This document shows positions 4,871 through 47,454 of a DNA stretch of 64,000 nt, in pieces (within the stretch, counting starts at the first letter, position 1; every line of letters starts with the position of its first letter). The position numbers and the translations under genes are program-made. The notes under the pieces were generated by a model. The model did not search any database and was not told the DNA's origin. It was given only the letters and a program-made list of their open reading frames with translations. Source of the stretch: Camelus dromedarius (lineage: Eukaryota); the NCBI RefSeq assembly GCF_036321535.1, contig NC_087436.1, forward strand, positions 44,642,001 through 44,706,000, in the 5' to 3' direction.

Positions 4871-6619
4871 ATTATCTTGTAACTTCTTAATGCTTCTCTC
4901 CACACTGCTAATAACTAAGCAAGGTTAGGCTACCTAGGTAAACAGCTTTTTAGCACGGGGTAGTACTTACTGTGATAGCGTGTGCTCTAAGGGGAAGAGC
5001 TGAGGATATGGAATAATAAAACTTTGTATTTGATTTCGACACTTGCTTGCTCTGTGACCTTAGTGATGTGATATAATCTATTAGAGATAAGCATTTTCTG
5101 TATGTAAGCGAGGATTAGTAGTTTCTGTTCTACATGTCTAACGGGGCCATTAGAACAAGTTAGAGCAGCAGTTTTCACACTAACTAGGGGAAGGATCAGG
5201 TATGTATGTATGTTTTTGTTCTGGTACATCGCAGACTACACTTTTGTAAAATACAGTTAATACTAAATACTAAAAAAAATTTTTTTAAAAGAAAGAAAAC
5301 TTAAAACATACAAAATACAAGTCACTTCTCTTTAATTGATAGATCTAACTGGCATAAAATTGCTCTGTTGATATCCATAAAAGTTTGTAAGCATTTACTC
5401 AGTTTTTGTACTTCTTTTATGAGGGTCTAAAAACAAACAGTTACGATTACTCTTTTGTGTTTTAACTATTCAGTATATAATCCATATGGTTATTTTCTTA
5501 AACAAGTCTGTGCTTGCCTTTTATTACTAAACAGGGCTTGTTTACTCCACAAATTTTTTATAAACATACACTACATAAAATAGTTTCAACTCCAAAGACT
5601 ATTAATAGGCTATTAATTTTATCTCTTATGCCAAATGAGTTCTTAAACTTAGCTATCATGCAAGTTATACATATGTAAAAGATTCAAAAAGAAACTAGGA
5701 AAATGATAAACGCTATCTGTAAATGAAACTCATAAACAATTAAACGTGTCTAAAATGATAAAGGGAAGATGTTGATTACTCTCCCTAAAATGTCAACTTT
5801 GTAAACTACCTTTATCTTCTACTTCTAGTTTCCTACAGAAGACTCCACTACACCTGGGTGTTTTCAACTAATATAATGATACGGGATGAAACTGAATCCA
5901 CTAGTTTTATTTAAGCCTCTGCATCTCAGTGTGAATCTGTAATCTGGATAATCCTTACATGCCAAGAGTTTTGGGGAGCATGTGAGTACCTTGTTACAAC
6001 GATATAAGCTGCTATGGGAGTGAAGTGAGACATTTTCATGGTGCTAACGGGAATCTAGGCAAAAGAACAATGCTGCTTCCTCAGGAAAATAAGCACGATG
6101 TGATAATAATAATATCCTAATGAGAGAATCCACGCCTTCAAGAAATTTTTGAAAAAATAGACATTTGGTAAAATACCACGTGATTTTATGAACCCAAGTG
6201 CTTACAACTAAGGTGGGTTAATATCTAGACCTGAGGGAGTGTGCTTGTCTCTATGAGTCTGTTTCGTGCAACCTTTAACCTACATTTATGCAGCTTATAC
6301 AGTCAACTAAAATAACGCACAAAATAATATATTTAAAACTTGAAATAACTCTTCCAGATTGAGTTTTGGGTTTTTTTTTTTCTTTTAGTATTTTAATAGT
6401 TTTAAACATGAGGGAGTTGAAGTCCTGAGAGGTCAGGTGCATAGCCTCAAGTCTCCAGCTCTCCGGTGACAGAGCACACTCGTGAGTCCATGTCTGTCTG
6501 TTGGAAGTAGCTTCCTTACACACTGTGCCACACTGGGTCCCAGGTACTTATAACACTGTCTTGTATTTATACAGCCAATTTCTTTAAAGTGTTCAGAGAA
6601 AATCTCTATCTGCTACTCT

Positions 6620-6775
6620 CTTTACCCTTTCTGTTAAGATTTCAAGCAGTTTGAGTTTTCTGTGAGGTAAGCAATGGAAACTAAAATTCAGCTTTGGAGA
6701 GATAATGATTTAGGTATGTAAAGTGATTTGTTCAAGGTCACAGAGCAGATCAAGAAGACAGGTAGAATGAAAACA
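6620..6775 (-). mobile_element. MIR SINE
   Basis: AAGTGATTTGTTCAAGGTCACAGAGC core (antisense). Confidence 0.6.
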
Positions 6776-7566
6776 CATTTTACACTTTTCCTGTTTTATA
6801 CTTTTTCATTGGCATATCTCTTACTAGTTCTTTTTCTCTCATAGAGGCTAAAATATTGCAAACAAATGAAGAGATTGTTTTTAAAGGATTTGTTATATAG
6901 CCTGCTGGGAAAGTTAAAACACATAAAAAGGTCAGGGAAATAAACACTCTTTTATACCATTTAAAAATCAAGGATAGAGATAGGTTTAAATTTATAGTGT
7001 TAGAGTATCTCCAGGACCACACACAATCTGCCATGCATTACACATAGCAGATTGTTAATCAACGTGCAGAATAAATTCATACATGAAGGGGTCTAGTAAT
7101 GAAAAAAGATATTTACATAAAATAAAATAAATTGTCATGTTTAAAAGTACCCACTCATTTGTTTGTGTGCAATACATAGCAGGCAATAAATTACTCTGAA
7201 CACAAGGCTCATTTCATGCTCTCAATGAGCTTATAGTCATGCCAGAGAGACACACAAGTAAAAAGCCAATTTATTCATAGAATATAAAGTGCTGGGACCT
7301 AGGTAAGCACAGGCCGCCTAATGGGAGGCTTGTAAGGTCCTGGAGGAAGCAAAGTCTGGTGGATGTTAGGCATCCCAGAAAGAGGTAAGCTTGTGTAGAG
7401 CCCTGAAAGAGAGCATAGGGGTAGTAATTAACGGTGCAGGGGACACAAAGTTTGAGAAATATTTATACCTCACAGAAACAAATGCATTAAGTTTTTTTGC
7501 ATTTTAATTAACTGAAAGTCTTGAAGAAAATTTTGGGAATTTTAGACTAAAGGTCTAAAGCTGTTA

Positions 7567-7979
7567 GAAGCTGTTCCATCTTTGGACATGGATTTGTGTA
7601 TAATGCGGTAACCCAGACTTCTGGCTCTGTGCTGAAGCAGGTCACTTTCACTCCCACTTTTTCTCCCTTTATATGCACACTTATTAATTGGATGTTAATC
7701 TACTTTTCTCTTCATTCAGAGAGAGCCTGGGCCACTAGCATCACTCCATGAATCAAAACCTTCAGCTGACTCACTAGACTTGCCAACTCATATCACCTGG
7801 AAAATGTCATGGAGCCAACTTCTTTTTATTAATGCAGGTCATTCTATAATGTATGAATATCAATAAAGTATATGAAGCGGAGATGTTGCTGAAAAAGAGA
7901 GGATAAACAATAGAATTGCTCTAACCACAAAAGTACAACGTTATCAAATAATTCTCACCAACCAACAAGCAAGACTCAA
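7567..7979 (+). repeat. Left arm of 413-bp inverted duplication (derived copy)
   Basis: Reverse complement of 10249-10661 with no indels and 4 substitutions by manual comparison (7578/10650, 7625/10603, 7684/10544, 7878/10350). Flanked by direct repeat GAATTTTAGA at 7537-7546 and 7980-7989. Confidence 0.97.
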
Positions 7980-8149
7980 GAATTTTAGAATAGGTGCAGT
8001 CTGAGGCGGATGTGGTGTGCTGGCATGCCTCCACAGTCCCCCTCTTCTTCTGGTGGCCATCCCCAAGTTTCTGAGCCCAAGTTTATTTATGTATTTATTT
8101 AGTCTTTCAAAGGTAGAGCTCAGGATACAACTTGATCCCACCAATGTGA

Positions 8150-8535
8150 ACTTGTATAAGATTGGAAAAACAGAACTGAAGGATTATATTCCCCTGGCTC
8201 CAGCTGGTGCTGCTAAAAGGCATGATCTTGGAGACACTGGGTATTTTTGCTTGAACGTTCGAGTGCCTAGTCATCAGCTCAGTGGGTGTCCAGGGACATT
8301 GGTAGCGGGGCAGGTAGAACTTCCTGAGCCCTGGAGAACTGTTATGACAGAGCCCTGGTGAACACGGCAGGTCTCCAGCAGCCTCCCTGTGCCCCGCCCT
8401 CCTGAGGAGTGGGCGTGGCTCCCTGACGTGGGAGTCTTTCCTATGGTCCTTGTGAAAATTCTCTGCCAGCATTGTAGCAACCCATTCCTGCACTAAATCT
8501 CTGTCTACTTTCAGTAGCTAGAATTCTTGTAGCAG
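8150..8535 (+). mobile_element. Ancient ERVL-type LTR (LTR33/LTR16-like)
   Basis: GC-richer block ending CCCATTCCTGCACTAAATCTCTGTCTACTTTCAGTAGCTAGA, similar to LTR33-type 3' ends. Confidence 0.55.
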
Positions 8536-9120
8536 AGCAGTCCAGATGCTTGGTCAAACACAGTTTTAGGAAATAAGAATTCACTGAATCGGTCACCATT
8601 CTATAGGTAATTTTGATTTATAAATTTTGATTGGTCTTGAACATACCACATTCTAAGCTATATATAGAAAACAAACTATGAGCTCCTTGTGGAAGGAATT
8701 TGTATTTTATTACCTCTGGTGTCCCTCATTTTATATGATGTCCAGCATGTAATGTAGCTGCTCAGGAAATGACTGCTGATTGGATAAACTAATCAAATAA
8801 TTTCATCCATCTATCCAACTTTATTTTTTTTATTTTAATTTTTTAAAAATATCATGTTAGGTGTAAGTTAATTATAGCTGAGATTATTTCGGTTTTTTTT
8901 CATATTCAAGTTAATAGTTTTTACCTTTAAAATTTCTTGGTGTTCTATGTGACAAATTGCCTAGTTAATTCTCTCATTTTAATTTTTGATGTATACACTA
9001 AACAACAATTTCTGCTGTATAAAAGGCAGCCATTCCAGCCAAACCATGAATAGATCTAAAGAAAGTTCAACAGAAGACTGAAAATACTGAGACACTTGCA
9101 TGTTAATTTATAAATAGTTG

Positions 9121-9203
9121 AGGGAAGGTACAGCTCAGTGGTAGAGCGCATACATGCACAAGGTCCTGGGTTCAATTCCCAGTACCTCCATTAAAAAAAA
9201 AAA
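9121..9203 (+). mobile_element. tRNA-derived SINE (camelid Vic-type)
   Basis: A box (AGCTCAGTGG), B box (GGTTCAATTCC), CAGTACCTCCA and A-tail. Confidence 0.9.
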
Positions 9204-10248
9204 GTATGACATTAAAATCATGCTTTCATGTGTTTAGATGCTCAGATATACATAGTTGAATTTGAGTTCCAAAAGCATTAGATAATTATTATAAGGTAAT
9301 TTCATCAGAATATTGGACAAAACTGATGACATTTTGTCTTTTCCAGTCCTCTTCATTGACACTATGAAGTAAAACTGTTTAAGAGGTACCAATTTTGTTA
9401 TTTTATAACAAGGAGACTTTACATCACCACTAGTCTGAGTAAAGGATCAACTACTCAGAACAGTGAGCCAAGATTATTTCTATTCATTTGTGATTATGAT
9501 TATATTATAAATAAAATGCAATATAAAGCCAGAATATAAAGCATCCAGGAGAGCACAGATTATGTTAGAATTACTATGGTATCATGGAGAAATGACAGGC
9601 ATGCAATTTTGTGCCAAAAACAAACCTCTGTTCATGACTCAAGGTATAAATATCAAACTAAAATCTGAATTACATCTGTAGATTCACTATCTGGGCTTCA
9701 ATCTCTTTTCTTTACTAACTTACTCCTAACCAAAGTCATATAAATAAAAGAAGACACTAGGCCTTCAGTGAGAGATGGGGCTAAAAAGAGCTCTGCCAAG
9801 AGCTATTTCTCTCTCCATAGCTCTCCCTTTATTTTCTACAAAAATCTCAACTGACACCCTGGCTGGTTTCAACATATTTTCCTGTGGGCATGTAACGAAC
9901 AGCAGCAGCAAAGCCAGCTCCCAGGTCAGCAGACTTCACATTTGCTCTACTGAGCAAGACAGACTCGAGAAACTAATAATCTCAGAGTCACAGCCAGTGA
10001 GCTGCTTTCATCTCATACCTAGGGAATCTAGGCTCATTACATGTTTGATAGGGAAAAATATGTTGATGGAAATACATGGGCACTTTAGGGTAAAGAAGCA
10101 TCAAGGGCAGTGATATGAAAGGACTTTCAAGAAACTTTCTGTCTCTCCATTCATTGACATTTCTGACAGCTTGAGACAATGAGAGCAGATGGTGATGTGG
10201 AGAATTGGGGTGCTCTGGGAGACCTCTTGAGGACTTGGGTACCACCGG

Positions 10249-10661
10249 TTGAGTCTTGCTTGTTGGTTGGTGAGAATTATTTGATAACGTTGTACTTTTG
10301 TGGTTAGAGCAATTCTATTGTTTATCCTCTCTTTTTCAGCAACATCTCCACTTCATATACTTTATTGATATTCATACATTATAGAATGACCTGCATTAAT
10401 AAAAAGAAGTTGGCTCCATGACATTTTCCAGGTGATATGAGTTGGCAAGTCTAGTGAGTCAGCTGAAGGTTTTGATTCATGGAGTGATGCTAGTGGCCCA
10501 GGCTCTCTCTGAATGAAGAGAAAAGTAGATTAACATCCAATTAGTAAGTGTGCATATAAAGGGAGAAAAAGTGGGAGTGAAAGTGACCTGCTTCAGCACA
10601 GAACCAGAAGTCTGGGTTACCGCATTATACACAAATCCATGTCCAAAGACGGAACAGCTTC
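10249..10661 (-). repeat. Right arm of 413-bp inverted duplication (probable donor copy)
   Basis: Reverse-complement match to 7567-7979. Its outer flank (CCTTTAGTC, 10661-10669) is also copied at 7545-7553. Confidence 0.97.
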
Positions 10662-12659
10662 CTTTAGTCAAATAAGGTATGAAGACATAGAGGCATAGCA
10701 GGTAAGGAAACAGATTCCAAAGCATCAACAGCTGTAATCGCTTGTCAAGTGACATCACACTATGGATTGTCAGTATGATAGTTCAGTGTCAGTACAATTA
10801 GTTGAAACGTGAAAAATGCCATTTACTTTGTCCACATGATGTCAAAATGTCTCTTTGTCAGTTTTTCATGAATTACTGCAAATGCCTTGTTAAACGATAG
10901 ACTTTCCAGGCTCTTTCATATAAATAACATTTTATAGGACTAAAAGTCTTGAAATTATTTCATCATTTTAAAAAAAGCAAGTATTTCTTGGTTCATAAAT
11001 ATTCATAGAAACATAATTATTTTGTCTTCCACTTAATGTTCAGTCTAAGATGAAAATGCACATGACTAAACCAAAAATATCTCCTGCCAGTCTTTAATTT
11101 TAGTGTTTGCTATATGTTTCAACCATATACTAATACAAATTTAAGGTTTCTCTAGTAAGGCATCCATCTTATGGCAGATCCACCTGTTTGTCAGATGTTA
11201 TCATTTTATTTTCCTGATTCAGATGAAATGCTGTTCACGAGATTCAATTTCTAAAATAGCCTTTTTTTTCAAAAGGTTGGAACCATTTTTATATCTTGTG
11301 TCCACTGCACTGTGTGTTATTACACTCTATATACAATTTATATATGCATTTGTTAGGTGGAGTCCTGCAAAAGGAGGAAAAAAGAAAAAGCTTTAAATGG
11401 GCATTTTCAGGTCCATACTTTCCTTGGAAAGCAATATGGGGAGGGATACTAGACTCTTGGCGAGATTGCATTATGATGTAGTGACCCTGAAAATAGGGTC
11501 AGAAGGAGGTCTCCCTGCTAACTGGAAAACTAATCAATATAATTCAATATAAGGACTGGCACCCCCAAATCATATAACTTCTCTCCTTTTCTGTTCCTCT
11601 CCGCTATCAACCCTGAGACTCCAGCCCCCTCCGCCTCATGGTTATCCCCTCATTGCTCATACACTCATAGTCCTGCATGTAGGCAAATACTCACAAAAAA
11701 TTGTAAGAATCTTCTATCATTGGTTACGTGTATAAAAGCCAAGAACTTTAAGCTGAATGCATTTTCATATTCAACTTGTTTGAACTGAGATTTATCTGAA
11801 ATGAGATTTAATTTACTTAAAACAATAACTTGAGCATGGAGCTTTAGTTTCAGGTAAAATAAATGTGTAGAATTGTATTTTCTCCTAATAGATCTATTTT
11901 ATTGCTAATGCCAAAACCCAGTTATTTAGATTTGTAGGAGGTTATCAGACAAACTTCTCTGTGGACTGGGCTGCATTTGATTCAGATCAGGTACACTTAC
12001 TGAGAAGGAGAGCAAGACAAAGGGTAGAAGGTCACTGGTGACTAATTTTCTGAAAACTAGCAGCTTGTGTAAGTAATAGAACATTTATTGCCTTTCGATG
12101 TTGTCCCGGCAATGAGCTAGAAAATCCATAAGAATTCCCAGCCCTAGCCTTTATTAAGGCATAGCCCTGGATTAGTTTAATGTGCAATTTAAAGTCACTG
12201 CCTGCCAATACTTTGCTTACTTTTCTTAAGTAGGGCCACGTTCCACCCCGACTCCCCAATCAAGTTGTCAAAAAGATTAAAAAAAGAGAGAGGTGTACTT
12301 TTTAAAAATTGTTTGAGAGAGAGTCTTTTTCCAATCTAAGATGTGCATTTATTTTTTCTTATATAGTACCGATCCTGATAAAATGACCAACCCCCAGTGA
12401 AGCAGTTATTATTCACAGGAAATTCACAAACGCGGAACATGAGGCCTGTTCCCTTTGTACCCTTCTGCCACCGACTCAGGCCGACCAGGCCTTAATAGCC
12501 CAGTGCTTGTGAAACTGTTTTAGTATTTTAATATGTAATTCCAATAACAAAGTAACTTTTAAGACTCAAAGTGTTTTCCAAGTAGAAAAGTGTTAAATGT
12601 TTAGAAAAGAATGAGTCTTAATATTAACACTGTCAGATAAGTGGATAAGAAAGGAAACT

Positions 12660-19984: not shown

Positions 19985-20830
19985 GTGAACCATAGTCAAG
20001 AAAAAAATGTCGGTCAACAGAAACAGGCCTACAAACATCCTGAATGTTGGAGCTGACAGCTGAAGATTTTAAACTATTTTTGATAAAAATTTTATAAAAC
20101 CCAGAGTAAAAGATAAGTAAAATTGTCAGGATACATTTGGAAGCTATAAAAAAGAAACAAATGAATTACTCATCTGAAAAATACAATACAAAGACAATAT
20201 GAAGTAAAAAATCAGGATACATTTGGAAGCTATAAAAAAGAAACAAATGAATTACTCATCTGAAAAATACAATACAAAGACAATATGAAGTAAAAAATCA
20301 GGACATTGAAAAGAACAGAAGAAAGGATCAATAAACCTGAACACAGATTAACACAAAGCATACAAACTGAAGCACAAAGAGAGAAAAGATTATTAAACCA
20401 GAGTCTCAATTTGTACTCAAATACCCATAAACAAGGAAATGGATTAACCAGCTGTGCTATATCCATGTAATGCAATATACTCAGCAATAAAAAGAATCAG
20501 ACTATTGATACATTCACTAATATAATGAATCTCACATGTTCACAAGCAAAAGAAGCCAGACATCAAAATTATGTGTATAATTCCATCAGATAGAATTCTA
20601 GAAGAGGCAAGACTAAGCTATGATGATGGAAATCAGAGGAGTGAGATCCAGTTGAAGTGTGTGAGAATTAACTGGAAAGCTCCACAGGGTACCACCTAGA
20701 GTGATAAAAATTTTACTTATCTTAATAGGGATAGAGAACTTATGAGTGCTCACATTTATCAGAACTCCATGAAATAAACACAGAACATCAGTATATTCTG
20801 TTGGGATTAAACCATACCTGATTTTAAAAT
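19985..20830 (+). mobile_element. Ancient L1 (L1ME-like) fragments: ORF1-like part plus 3' end
   Basis: A-rich ORF1-like segment to ~20400, then 3'-end motifs (TATACTCAGCAATAAAAAGAA, ATGAATCTCA, AAAGAAGCCAGACA). Confidence 0.7.
20126..20303 (+). repeat. Perfect 86-bp tandem duplication
   Basis: 20126-20211 is identical to 20212-20297, and TCAGGA recurs at 20298-20303. Confidence 0.95.
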
Positions 20831-28730: not shown

Positions 28731-28969
28731 TTAAAATATTATGTAAATCAAGTTCTCTGATTCAGATTGTCTCCCCAACTAAGTCCCAGCTACTAAAGAT
28801 TTACAATGTCAGTTAAAAGATACCGGCATTATTTGATTTCACAGATCTTCAGTGGGACAGCGAAGAGAAACTACTGTGAGCCCTTGATTGTTACAGAAAG
28901 CAAGGAGTAGAGTCCACCCTTCCTGCTTTTCAGGGTCATATTCAGTGATTCACATATTCAGTGATTCAA

Positions 28970-32141: not shown

Positions 32142-32225
32142 TTTTTTTTTAATTGAAATATAGTCAGTTTACAATGTTGTGTCAATTTCTGGTGTACAAC
32201 ATAGTAGTTTAGTCATACATATACA
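32142..32225 (-). mobile_element. L1 extreme 3' tip
   Basis: Poly(T)-AATTGAAATATAGTCAGTTTACAATGTTGTGTCAATTTCTGGTGTACA. Confidence 0.85.
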
Positions 32226-32513
32226 AGCTATAGCTCAGAGGTCCTGGGTTCAATCCCCAGTACCTCCATTAAAAAAAAAAAAAGGAAGCGGGGAGGGTAT
32301 AGCTCAGTGATAAAGCATGCGCTTAGCATGCATGAAGTCCTGGATTAGCATACATAAGGTCCTGGGTTCAATCCCCCATTACCTCCATAAAAAAAATAAA
32401 ATAAAATAAAAATATTAAACCTAATTACCTCCCCCCTCAAAAAAAAAAAAGAAGAAAAGAAAAAAAGAAAAGAATTAAAAATATATAAAATAAAAATAAA
32501 ATTTATTTAAAAA
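32226..32513 (+). mobile_element. Two tandem Vic-type SINE units
   Basis: Internally deleted unit 32226-32283 with A-tail, then a full unit from ~32289 with an internal duplication and AACCTAATTACCTCCCCCC-A-rich tail. Confidence 0.88.
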
Positions 32514-39775: not shown

Positions 39776-41140
39776 TCTGGGGAACCAGACATGCACTTTC
39801 AGCCCTAAATCTCTCTAATTCTTAGATTCCCCAGTTAGGGGAAGAAAAAGGAAGTGTTATATAAGACAGACTCTGGATGAACAGGAAGAATTAGGAACAT
39901 TTCTATTCAACCTACACAAAAAAGATTTTATGTGCCTTTCAGAAAAGAATAGAAGTAAAGGAAAAGTAATACATCTATCAGATGCAGTGGACAAAAAAGT
40001 ACGAGTAATGGGCAGAAGCCCTTTCAGCTCAATCTCCCGTCCCTTTTGCTAAGGAAGGATAGAATCATAATCTGGGGATATGCCCTCCAGAGCCACACGG
40101 TGAGGACAGTGGATGCAAAATCACATGATCCTGACTGGCCAATGAATTTCTTGCTCTGCCAAGGCTTTTGCCAGGAGAAAATCAGAAGAATCTGAATCTC
40201 AGAGCTGAATCTCAGAGCATCCTTTCTACAGGTCGCAACTTGACCAGGGACTAGTAGGTTCCCTGTGATGCCCTTTCCACCCTCTGCTTATTCCTTGGCA
40301 CGAGCAGTTTGAAGGCAGGTCCTGGTCCTCAAATTTCCTTCTTCCCCCAGGTTGTTACCTCAGATGCAGAAACTTCATGCTGGTGTCTTATTTATACATC
40401 AGACACATTAATTAAAAGTGGAGACCTTATTGTGATTGGCTCGTCTATTCTACCTTGCCTAGGGAGACAAAGTTCAGAAATACCAGAAATTAAAACGTTT
40501 TGCAGCAGTCTTGTTGATTAATACAACATGTTAAACTTTTGCTTGTTTTTTTTTTTAAGTGAGGTAGTTTCAGTTCATCTAAAACAGACACTTCCATCTT
40601 TTGCTTATCTTCCAATGTGAGATAACCACAAATAATTTTAGAAATCTCCCTTGAAAGAGAACGCAGGCCAGACAATGGTGTGATGTGGCCCAAGACATTA
40701 GAAACACTGGCTGGAAGCCAAGGAGCTTACACCTTGAAGTTCAACAGGGGAAAAAAGCGATTTTTCCAAAGATAAAAAGATGAGTAAAGTGGGGAGGCCC
40801 CAGGACTGATGGGTGGAAGTTGCCTGCATGTAACTGCAACATAAGAATAGAGTCTTTAAAAAAAATTATTTTAAATGTATTTATCTTTCAAAATTTTCCT
40901 TTTTGAAATAAAGACACATTGTATCAAGGTATACAATGTGGATATGTGGAAGGGATTATTTCACACTTCAAATGTGTGCTTGGAACTTTGATCAGAGCTG
41001 TGAATCACCTCAATTGTACACAGTTTGTATCTGAGAATTTTCCTACCTTATATTACAAAATGTCTCCTTGGATAATGGATAAACCACCCCAACCCCACAT
41101 AAGATGGAGAAAATGAAGTCACCAAAAATTTAGAGGAAAA

Positions 41141-42600: not shown

Positions 42601-44077
42601 TTTTTCAGATGTGGGGTTTGGGGCTACTAACTTAATGCTTATTAAAGTCAATTTTCTTTATCTTTAAAATGGGAATGATAAAATAATCCTCACTGGGCTG
42701 TTTTTGAATATTTAGGAGTTCCAGGAGAAGATTAATACAGATTATTGATGAATAATGTATATCTGTGCGTGAACTTCCATATCTTGATGTTTTTTAAGAT
42801 GATGTTATTGACACTGATCATAATCCAGTATAGGATGTGCTGGACTACAGAGGTGATTGTCAATAATGTTGTGACTACCACCGCATTCAGATACCCTCTT
42901 GCTGTGCATAAAGAAGTCTAGATGTTCAGACCTTTCTATGAGACATATGATTTCCTGAGAATTCATCTTCAAATAAGACTTTCTTTTCAAGTTACTGCTT
43001 GGTAAGCAGACTTCTAAATGTGTGCTTTGCATCAAAGTGTGGCCAGTGTTAGCCACCACAGCAAGAGGCAAGCTCTATTCTCCTTTTGTTCCGCTAAGCA
43101 GTGACCCAAGCACGTTACATTAACACCTTTGGAAAGATCAGGAGTATCAGATCCCTTATTGGCAAATGCACTATTCCCGTGCTTATTTGTGATTGTAAAC
43201 CACTCTGTCAGAATGAATTGTGTGGGCACTGGCCATTGTGGCCGTCATCATGAGTTGCTTACTTTAGAATTACTGAGAGTTCAATTTCATGTTTATTAAA
43301 TTTTGACCTCTCTGAAGAGTCTCATATCGAGGGTCCAGTTGAGATGAGGAGATAACAAGGAAGGCATTTTAAACGGGGCAGCAGAAGCCACGATGACAGG
43401 AATGACTCCAAAGTAAGTTATGCTGATAGTCGTCATTCTAGTGTTTGAAATAGTAGCAGTGCCTTCTCTTGAAAACCCCAAAGATGAAAGATATGTAAAC
43501 ATGAAATATGTGTTTATTCTTATACGTATTTTTTCCCCTTGTTACCTTCCAGCTGGCAGAGATTATAATGCATAGGCTTTCCTAGCATGAGACAGCTGTT
43601 GAATATGTCTCAGTGTGGAATGCTACTTACGGTCTACAGCAAAAATAGTAAAACCCACCTTTTTGCTACAAGTGTTTCCTGGTAAAGGTATAATAATTTA
43701 TACAGTGACTAAATTAGTTCTATAAAACTTCAGTATTACTTCTTTTTTTTTAACATTTTTTATTGATTTATAATCATTTTACAATGTTGTGTCAAATTCC
43801 AGTGTTCAGCACAATTTTTCAGTCATTCATGGACATATACACACTCATTGTCACATTTTTTTCTCTGTGAGTTATCATAACATTTTGTGTATATTTCCCT
43901 GTGCTATACAGTGTAATCTTGTTTATCTATTCTACAATTTTGAAATCCCAGGCTATCCCTTCCCACCCTCCACCCCCCTGGCAACCACAAGTCTGTATTC
44001 TGTCTGTGAGTCTATTTCTGTCCTGTATTTACACTTTGTTTTTATTTGTTTTGTTTGTTTGTTTTTGTTTTTGTTTT

Positions 44078-45142
44078 TTAGATTCCACATATGAGCGATC
44101 TCATATGGTATTTTTCTTTCTCTTTCTGGCTTACTTCACTTAGAATGACATTCTCCAGGAGCATCCATGTTGCTGCAAATGGCATTATGTTGTCGGTTTT
44201 TATGGCTGAGTAGTATTCCATTGTATAAATATACCACTTCTTCTTTATCCCGTCACCTGTTGGTGGACATTTAGGCTGTTTCCATGTTTTGGCTATTGTA
44301 AATAGTGCTGCTATGAACATTGGGGTGCAGGTGTCATCCTGAAGTAGATTTCCTTCTGGATACAAGCCCAGGAGTGGGATTCCTGGGTCATATGGTAAGT
44401 CTATTCCTAGTCTTTTGAGGAATCTCCACACTGTTTTCCATAGTGGCTGCACCAAACTGCATTCCCACCAGCAGTATAGGAGGGTTCCCCTTTCTCCACA
44501 GCCTCTCCAGCATTTGTCATTTGTGGATTTTTGAATGACGGCCATTCTGACTGGTGTGAGATGATACCTCATTGTAGTTTTGATTTGCATTTCTCTGATA
44601 ATTAGTGATATTGAGCATTTTTTCATGTGCTTTTTGATCATTTGTATGTCTTCCTTGGAGAATTGCTTGTTTAGGTCTTCTGCCCACTTTTGGATTGGGT
44701 TGTTTATTTTTTTCTTATTGAGTCGTATGAGCTGCTTATATATTCTGGAGATCAAGCCTTTGTCGGTTTCACTTGCAAAAATTTTCTCCCATTCCGTAGG
44801 TTTTCTTCTTGTTTTACTTCTGGTTTCCTTTGCTGTGCAGAAGCTTGTAAGTTTCATTAGGTCCCATTTGTTTATTCTTGCTTTTATTTCTTCTAGGAGA
44901 AAATTTTTTAAATGTATGTCAGATAATGTTTTGCCTATGTTTCCCTCTAGGAGGTTTATTGTATCTTGTCTCATGTTTAAGTCTTTAATCCATTTTGAGT
45001 TGATTTTTGTATATGGTGTAAGGGAGTGTTCTAGCTTCATTGTTTTACATGCTGCTGTCCAGTTTTCCCAACACCATTTGCTGAAGAGACTGTCTTTATT
45101 CCATTGTATATTCTTGCCTCCTTTGTCGAAGATGAGTTGACC
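44078..45142 (-). pseudogene. L1 ORF2p C-terminal fragment including Cys-rich knuckle
   Basis: 320-aa ORF with typical ORF2 C-terminal motifs: [59 protein letters not shown]. Confidence 0.93.
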
Positions 45143-46749
45143 AACAATTTTAAGAAGATAGAAATTATCTCAAGCATCTTTACTGACCACAATGCCATGA
45201 AACTGGAAATCAACAACAGAGAAACAAAGGAGAAAAAAAGGAAAGCATGGAGATTAAAAAATATGTTATTGAAAAAACAATGGGTCAATGAGGAAATCAA
45301 AGCTGAAATTAAAAAGTACCTTGAGACAAATGATAATAAAGCACAACCACCCAAAACCTATGGGACACAGCAAAGGCAGTGCTAAGAGGGAAGTTTATAG
45401 CAATACAGGCCTTCCTCAAAAAAGAAGAACAATCTCAAATAAACAATTTAACCCACCACCTGAATGAATTAGAAAAAGAAGAACAAAAAGCCCCAAAAAG
45501 CAGCAGAAGGAAGGAAATAATAAAGATCAGAGAGGAATTAAATACAATAGAGATTAACACGACCATAGAGATAATCAACCAAACCAAAAGCTGGTTTTTT
45601 GAAAAAGTAAATAAAATTGACAAACCTCTGGCCAAACTCACAAAGAAGAAAAAAGAAAGAGCACAAATTAGCAAAGTAAGAAAGGAAAATGGAGAAATTA
45701 CAACAAAATAGAAATACAGAATATCATACGAGAATATTATGAAAAACTATATGGAACCAAACTGGATAACCTAGAGGAGATGGACAAGTTTCTGGAAACA
45801 TACTGTCCACCAAGACTGAATCAAGAAGAATGTGAACACTTGAACAATCCGATCACTAGAAAGGAAATAGAAATAGCAATTAAAAACCTCCCTACAAATA
45901 AAAGTCCAGGACCGGACGGCTTCACTGGGGAATTCTACCAAACATACAAAGAAGAACTCATACCAGTCCTTCTCAAACTCTTCCAGACGATTGAAAAGGA
46001 GGGCATACTCCCAAACTCATTTTATGAAGCCACCATCACCCTGATACCAAAACCAGGCAAAGACACTACAAAAAAAGAGATTCATAGGCCAATATCACTG
46101 ATGAACATAGACGCCAAAATCCTCACCAAAATTATAGCAAATAGAATCCAACAACACATAAAAAAGATTATACATCATGACCAAGTGGGGTTCATCCCAG
46201 GGACACAAGGCTGGTTCAACATACGCAAATCAATCAGTGTAATACATCACATCAACAAGAGAAAGGACAAAAACCACATGATCATCTCAATCGATGCAGA
46301 AAAAGCATTTGATAAAATTCAACACCCATTTATGATAAAAACTCTCGTCAAAGTGGGTATAGAGGGAACATATCTCAACATAATAAAAGCTATATATGAC
46401 AAACCTACAGCCAGCATAGTACTCGACAGTGAAAAACTCAAAAGCTTCCCACTAAAATCTGGGACAAGACAAGGATGCCCACTATCACCACTCCTATTCA
46501 ACATAGTCCTGGAAGTCCTAGCCACAGCAGTCAGGCAAGAGAAAGAAATAAAAGGGATCCAAATTGGAAAAGAAGAGGTAAAAGTGTCATTATATGCTGA
46601 TGACATGCTACTATATATAGAAAACCCTAAAAGGGCCACACAAAAGCTACTAGAGCTGATTGAAGAATTCAGCAAGGTAGCAGGTTACAAAATTAACGTT
46701 CAAAAATCAGTTGCATTTCTTACACTAACGATAAATCAACAGAAGAAGA
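45143..46749 (+). pseudogene. L1 ORF2p fragment (end of endonuclease, Z region, reverse transcriptase), frameshifted
   Basis: IFTDHNAMKLEI (EN end), [46 protein letters not shown] and LYADDM are split over three ORFs (45104-45385, 45379-45711, 45780-46814), so there are at least two frameshifts. Confidence 0.95.
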
Positions 46750-47454
46750 CAGTATTACTTCTTTACTTTAAAAAATTAGATATTTTAAAAGATAAATGTA
46801 TGCAATGTATATGATGAATATAAATAATACAATATATAGTCTCATACAAATAAGTAGTATACATAATGTAAATAATGGCCAAAAATCTGAAAAAAGAAAT
46901 ACGAAATGAAATGAAGTTGAGCAAATATCACAATCAACATACTCTTTCCCTCTTTTTCTGAAATATTTAATTTTATCTTTTAAAAGTGCATTATCATTTA
47001 AAAGTTCTTATTTTAAAGAATTAATAGGAAACATTATTTTCCATAATTTAAATATGTATTTTTAAAGTGCAAGATATCACAATACTTAAAACTTGCTTCA
47101 TTTTAAAAATGAATTTTTTTGTGGCAACTTACAGAAGAATGTATACATAGCAGGATAAAGAAAAATAAGAACGTTAGGAAACAGGAAAAATAATGGTAGG
47201 AAAAGTTAAGTGAAATAAAGGGCAAGGTTACTACATGTATACAGGTATACATTTCTGTATATCTGCCTATGAACATCCTACAGACCAAAACAGAATAAAA
47301 CATGAATTAAAATACGACACCAGATCTATAGAGTGACTTTTCTTAGTGCTGAGATCACAAATATGTCACGGAGTGAAGTAAAGGTTTCATGATGAATAGC
47401 TTTGTGTGCGTGTGTGTGATGCTACTTTAAATTTGTTTCTAATTCATTTTTCGT

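Follow-up and report, generated by a model that had tools for sequence, protein, structure and literature searches.

Short segments of DNA are known to be copied into new sites in several ways. A survey of 1,019 human genomes counted 277 inverted duplications, of median length 284 bp and mostly with 1-15 bp of microhomology, more than any other class of inversion outside mobile elements (PMC12350158). Polymerase theta produces templated insertions (TINS), whose first-round tracts rarely exceed 10 bp and are direct or hairpin-primed inverse copies, longer inserts being the result of more than one round (PMC7165422). Synthesis-dependent microhomology-mediated end joining (SD-MMEJ) gives complex insertions in which copies of nearby sequence overlap one another, and involves snap-back synthesis (PMC2943611). 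Complex templated insertions of MMBIR (break-induced replication that is mediated by microhomology; the insertions are referred to as MMB-TI) amounted to 33 and 26 germline events in two people, with microhomology at most junctions (PMC8421209). Templated sequence insertion polymorphisms (TSIP) come from distant donors; those of class 1 have a target duplication, poly(A), a poly(A) signal and a TTTT/A site, and those of class 2 lack these features (PMC5110952). Here, we analyze an inverted duplication found in a 64,000-bp stretch of the Camelus dromedarius genome (assembly GCF_036321535.1, contig NC_087436.1, forward-strand positions 44,642,001 to 44,706,000; hereafter the window, numbered from its first base), in which a 413-bp copy of local DNA, preceded by a short filler, lies between two copies of a 10-bp target sequence. 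It is a well-preserved instance of a common, described mutation class and not a new element.

The two arms, at 7567-7979 and 10249-10661 (all feature coordinates are given on the + strand), are reverse complements of each other over 413 nt, with 409/413 identical positions (99%), no gap and 2269 nt between them. The four differences (7578/10650, 7625/10603, 7684/10544 and 7878/10350) are all transitions; two of them lie at CpG sites, implying that the left copy decayed at 7578 and the right copy at 10350. Ungapped alignment thus reproduced the pair as it had been given in a preliminary description of the window, with its four transitions, lack of indels and 2269-bp spacer. That description had also proposed a genome search with the arm, expecting two matches. 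Two were found in the 2.3-Gb assembly (both of the two candidates scored), in a search that skips very common words and that old diverged repeats would escape. A 6-kb query around the arm revealed only the arms and SINE copies among the 40 scored of 1,148 candidates. The view that the arm resembles no known repeat therefore holds within this genome and 264 kb of local DNA, the only sequence compared. An inverted copy of nearby unique DNA with the donor intact is the hallmark of a locally templated inverted insertion. Dispersed repeats have many copies and DNA transposons have a duplication around the whole element, whereas here there are two genome matches and a duplication that brackets one arm. 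Among inverted pairs of the window, those ranking next are 79-86% similar and are located inside L1 pieces. No further inverted pair of at least 60 bp at 93% identity or more was detected within the window or within any of twenty 10-kb flanking stretches, too little DNA for a rate. The spacer (7990-10248) carries a tRNA-derived SINE at about 9124-9200 and is in its original orientation, judged by the lack of a reverse-complement target repeat beside the right arm.

The direction of the insertion can be read from its flanks. Within the window, both strands included, the sequence GAATTTTAGA is confined to two places, 7537 and 7980. The left copy (7537-7546) contains a TTTT/AG motif at 7540-7545; the right copy (7980-7989) meets the arm at 7979/7980 with zero microhomology. 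Direct repeats of at least 10 bp in the same geometry were obtained for 18 of about 200,000 random position pairs. Since the repeat brackets the left arm and is found only there in the window, the left arm (7567-7979) is, on this sequence evidence, the insert, and the right arm (10249-10661) is the intact donor. The preliminary description had likewise framed the left copy by direct repeats, and the framing stands, with the pair now confirmed as unique in the window. The left repeat, however, is not flush with the arm: a 20-bp filler (7547-7566), absent from that description, separates the two. The new DNA thus amounts to 433 bp (20-bp filler and 413-bp arm) plus the 10-bp duplication. A 5-nt repeat across the right junction was considered as a loop-out tract and set aside as too likely by chance. 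The insertion site coincides with a sharp AT/GC boundary (72% AT on the left; 46% AT in the first 100 bp on the right). The DNA to its right (7990-8500) is GC-richer and contains, near 8410-8430, what we take to be GC-box-like and TGACGT motifs.

The filler tiles completely into four tracts with 1-2 nt of microhomology at each, drawn from the source end, the nascent strand itself and the target site. In tract 1 (7545-7553), GA, the last 2 nt of the duplication, serves as microhomology to source positions 10669-10668 and is followed by 7 nt from 10667-10661 in reverse complement. This match (10669-10661) reaches eight bases past the end of the arm, and these source bases (10662-10669), found only in tract 1, mark the first priming site. 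Tract 2 (7553-7559) is the reverse complement of 7541-7547, a snap-back with a 7-bp stem and a 5-nt loop; the hairpin has a folding energy of -4.5 kcal/mol, and 4 of 200 shuffled sequences folded equally well (z = -3.2). Positions 7555-7560 can alternatively be read as a slip on the source. Because target 7541-7545 and source 10663-10667 have a direct 5-mer in common at the switch point, part of the filler is readable either way. Tract 3 (7558-7565) is an 8-nt match to source 10660-10653 in reverse complement and appears to be an aborted start of the long copy. Tract 4 (7564-7569), a 6-nt match to target 7985-7990, looks like an abandoned attempt to rejoin the other end; it finishes with GAA, the first three bases of the arm, which provide the long copy with its microhomology. 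As a candidate stalling site, a small hairpin at the source end was rejected (z = -0.84).

All 20 filler bases match three templates, each no more than about 20 bp from the switch points. Eighteen of them lie under matches of at least 6 nt from 31 bp at the source end, a coverage that 5 of about 100,000 random templates and 6 of about 100,000 random fillers attained. Tiling in four tracts with at least 1 nt of microhomology per switch was not obtained with any of 4,000 random 20-mers (one tiled in five tracts), and none of 4,000 shuffles tiled in any number of tracts. The left junction thus carries the templated tracts expected of a repair or template-switch scar, and the right junction is blunt.

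The camel locus shares features with each of the described systems. As in human inverted duplications, a short unique segment was copied inverted; target duplications and multi-tract fillers are not reported in the passages on that class, and the human events are polymorphisms, while the camel event is known from one assembly (PMC12350158). As in TINS and SD-MMEJ, there are several tracts of less than 10 nt from flanking DNA, both direct and snap-back, with 1-3 nt of microhomology and in an AT-rich setting; unlike there, the tracts precede a 410-nt copy from 2.3-2.7 kb away, and no target bases were lost (PMC7165422, PMC2943611). The MMBIR templated insertions resemble the camel event in being germline copies from several nearby templates in both orientations, but the exact 10-bp target duplication suggests that the break was staggered rather than that synthesis simply switched and returned (PMC8421209). 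In TSIP, too, unique sequence appears at a new site with the donor intact, and the size is similar (experimental inserts were 73-414 bp; PMC5110952). The camel event fits neither TSIP class as these are described, because it combines a duplication without poly(A) with a local donor; class 2 in particular has a distant donor and no target duplication.

We propose, with a probability of about 0.7, that a double-strand break in the germline, its ends staggered by 10 nt, was mended by local DNA-templated synthesis. The left 3′ end would have paired through GA with the source, 2.7 kb away before the insertion, and gained 7 nt. Next would have come a snap-back of the nascent end (5-6 nt), renewed priming on the source (6 nt) and a brief contact with the right break end (3-4 nt), before re-priming on the source through GAA gave a run of about 410 nt. 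A final join without microhomology to the filled-in right end would leave 10 bp duplicated. The order of these steps, the enzymes involved, the way synthesis ran and the origin of the break are our inferences; alternatively, in a mirror order, priming may have been from the right end. The short aborted tracts look like the work of polymerase theta, through SD-MMEJ or polymerase theta-mediated end joining. The filler shows the several rounds of tracts of at least 5 nt, direct or inverse and taken from flanking DNA, by which TINS and SD-MMEJ are recognized. For the 410-nt run, a step of higher processivity, similar to MMBIR, was probably required. In embryonic stem cells, staggered breaks lead to small duplications, sometimes with inserts templated in cis, and fill-in gives near-blunt ends (PMC5730883, PMC8355091). 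The proposal agrees with the preliminary reading of a break patched from local DNA in inverted orientation and not by ordinary retrotransposition, which gained support from the fully locally templated filler. The product is most likely a neutral scar.

Several points weigh against this proposal. Typical polymerase theta inserts are 3-30 bp long and lie beside the break, and distal templates account for less than 0.1% of repair (PMC7165422), while the main tract here is 413 bp long and comes from 2.3-2.7 kb away. The left-primed order requires the top strand of the source as a template; since resection of the right end removes this strand, a sister chromatid or a displaced strand must be assumed. 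The far junction has no microhomology. The three filler templates were picked after the filler had been viewed, and the null counts given above therefore somewhat overstate significance. The pre-insertion allele is deduced, not observed, and the junctions are seen in the assembly alone. Finally, a TTTT/AG motif inside the duplication is uncommon by chance and points to a possible role of L1.

The top-strand template required of the source is exposed at a replication fork, and the event can also be read as a fork switch without any staggered break (fork stalling and template switching, FoSTeS, or MMBIR). Synthesis would have left its template after 7546 and, following a stutter, copied the opposite strand ahead of the fork before coming back to a point 10 bp upstream, so producing the direct repeat. 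A replicative origin is suggested by the authors of the human survey for inverted duplications, most of which have 1-15 bp of microhomology (PMC12350158), and germline events with several templates are described (PMC8421209). An upstream return, however, requires the opening of new duplex and was seen in 0 of 794 short-range human-chimp events, under a model that leaves out long-range and multi-round switches (PMC5453318); in addition, the return junction has no microhomology. We consider a fork switch distinctly unlikely, and favor a staggered break because upstream return is absent among the short replication switches of that study.

Retrotransposition by L1 had been discounted in the preliminary description on two grounds. 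The first, the lack of poly(A) or poly(T) at the insert ends, was borne out: the longest run of A or T within about 30-50 bp of either end is 4. The second, the lack of L1-endonuclease geometry, is correct for the edges of the repeat but not for its interior, where TTTT/AG at 7540-7545 lies on the strand that would prime an insert of this orientation. The motif TTTTAR is present in 1,521 of 63,990 window 10-mers (2.4%) and the looser TTTTR in 5,595; the local chance of TTTTAR is higher than the window figure, because the left flank is 72% AT. The duplication ends in AGA, the TTTT/A motif being inside it, 3 nt from its edge. Class 1 TSIP and L1 retrocopies have a duplication of at least 5 bp, and here it is 10 bp. 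They also have a poly(A) tail of 10-40 nt and a poly(A) signal 10-30 nt before the 3′ end; neither is present at the camel insert, and no AATAAA or ATTAAA was found near either source end, the only occurrences being mid-arm at 10398 (+) and 10366 (-).

A young L1 at 43741-46754 served as a control within the window. Its tail is poly(T), and its 15-bp duplication, at 43731 and 46750, ends in the T run. This copy carries a 5′ inversion, with 43741-45150 corresponding to the L1 3′ end on the minus strand and 45142-46754 to an upstream L1 part on the plus strand, an arrangement consistent with twin priming; about 470 bp are missing at the inversion point. An open RVT_1 frame is found at 45672-46811. 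The copy is 97-98% identical to an L1 in flanking stretch L015. The latter element, spanning L014:9180-10000 and L015:1-6300 about 75 kb to the right of the inverted duplication, is an apparently full-length plus-strand L1 with a CpG-rich 5′ end, which is the only strong CpG island in 264 kb.

These observations bear on the possibility that the insert is a tailless retrocopy. For this, L1 ORF2p would have nicked at TTTT/AG, with a true duplication of 7 bp, primed internally on a + strand RNA just after 10669, and landed near the RNA's own locus. The motif is on the appropriate strand for priming, the source is A-rich directly after 10669, the young copies that are 97-98% alike show that L1 was active in the lineage, and retrocopies that lack a tail, were primed internally and have target duplications are on record (PMC5322556). 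But the duplication extends 3 nt beyond the putative nick and tract 2 copies those 3 bases, the insert has no tail, and of the five switches, three draw on the nascent strand or the target as DNA templates or re-prime within 17 bp. An RNA that diffuses would not be expected to land 2.3 kb from its donor, and the locus yielded no coding host gene, though a lncRNA source is possible. Such a retrocopy is therefore improbable in our view.

L1 may instead have made the break only. ORF2p would have cut at TTTT/AG without capture of RNA, and the nicked end would have re-made 3 nt of the target and then copied neighboring DNA through several switches. We regard this origin of the break as unlikely. 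In cell models, ORF2p breaks can yield local templated inserts (PMC11702581, a preprint), and among the non-canonical outcomes described there are staggered breaks with 3′ overhangs that lead to local inversions, inverted duplications and inserts templated nearby, much like the camel event; the complex insertions of that preprint keep poly(A) and reverse-transcribed sequence, of which the camel insert has none. If L1 did make the nick, the locus would be a germline fossil of abortive retrotransposition, seen as a local inverted duplication without L1 sequence, and L1 would start some of the common 'replicative' inverted duplications. A narrow search of open-licence literature found no germline survey of inverted duplications started by L1.

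The insertion could also be an artefact of the assembly or the library, such as a fold-back chimera. The junctions are known from the assembly itself, and word shares in public runs do not tell presence of the insert from its absence. In 14 of 24 listed public runs (DNA or unlabelled, from 7 studies; 13 from organism A and one from organism B, with one study possibly being the source of the assembly), 0.96-0.97 of 490 sampled words of 6500-11500 were present, which is predicted equally with and without the insert; words unique to the insert occupy 185 of 4,971 positions (3.7%), and collapsing the two arms would cost 2.5%. Six RNA or RNA-like runs contained 0.10-0.52 of the sampled words and were not used as evidence of transcription. 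A 29-nt flank pattern had 0 matches in metagenome contigs. Against an artefact, the copies differ at four transitions, with the two at CpG showing decay in opposite copies, and the junctions have an exact 10-bp target duplication and templated filler. Moreover, the arms are 2.3 kb apart and not adjacent, within a 123-Mb contig and a window without N. An artefact is very improbable.

Near-identical inverted arms are able to convert each other, and arms of this kind could belong to an old duplication that gene conversion has homogenized or, as terminal inverted repeats, to a DNA transposon extending over 7567-10661. The direct repeat, however, flanks one arm and not the whole 7567-10661 unit, and the arm has only two genome matches, contrary to a transposon. 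Parts beyond the reach of conversion, the 10-bp repeats and the filler tracts, are still perfect matches. The longest identical run, 193 bp, is as expected for four random differences (P = 0.40), and the gene conversion that had been put forward earlier as an alternative thus found no support. Clustering of the arm differences near the complex junction was not significant (P = 0.07). We find either explanation hardly credible. From 4/413 differences and rates that we assume to be 1-2.5e-9 per year, the age of the insertion was estimated from the arm sequences at about 2-5 Myr, or 0.5-12 Myr with the Poisson interval.

As a single, probably neutral structural variant in an apparent gene desert, the event is of little weight alone. 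Its scar, however, is unusually legible, each junction base being assignable to a template, and it joins three features that are usually described apart: a target duplication, aborted tracts of polymerase theta type and a long copy from kilobases away. Among camelids, presence or absence of the insertion may be a useful marker. If such events were collected across the genome, it could be tested whether inverted duplications originate from staggered breaks, those of the L1 endonuclease especially. The 2.3-kb spacer might also become inverted through the flanking 413-bp arms; its original orientation indicates no such inversion in this assembly.

No host gene was detected around the site: a scan of 130 of the 139 open reading frames of at least 70 aa returned only L1 reverse transcriptase above the Pfam cut-off, and none of 55 candidate exons over 264 kb, predicted with a crude purpose-made splice scorer of uncalibrated sensitivity, exceeded it. 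No sign of a regulatory role for the arm appeared in the analyses made. In family searches, the genes found on either side of the site (44.65 Mb of the contig), 1.4 Mb apart, were of the alpha-kinase (43.87 Mb) and ERAP1_C (45.28 Mb) families. The same contig, referred to as C1, carries two NDST-family genes (39.6 and 41.9 Mb), TIR genes (13.6 and 95.2 Mb) and a protocadherin gene (101.2 Mb). From the human gene order, we take these genes to be ALPK1, ENPEP, NDST3/4, TLR2, TLR1/6/10 and PCDH7. On this order, with PITX2 itself not located, the site is likely the counterpart of the human 4q25 desert upstream of PITX2. An Eph-receptor exon at C1:66.97 Mb is on the strand opposite to that expected for a simple reversed copy of human chromosome 4; if the human orientation of the gene is as we assume, this hints at an internal inversion.

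Other duplications were noted elsewhere in the window. A perfect tandem duplication at 20126-20303 has an 86-bp unit in 2.1 copies, in otherwise non-repeated-looking sequence, and must be very recent, as its copies match at 100%. Small perfect tandem duplications are present at 28937-28968 and 40192-40218, with units of 16 bp and 13 bp, respectively. A cluster of tRNA-derived SINE pieces with internal repeats adjoins an L1 3′ end at 32200-32470.

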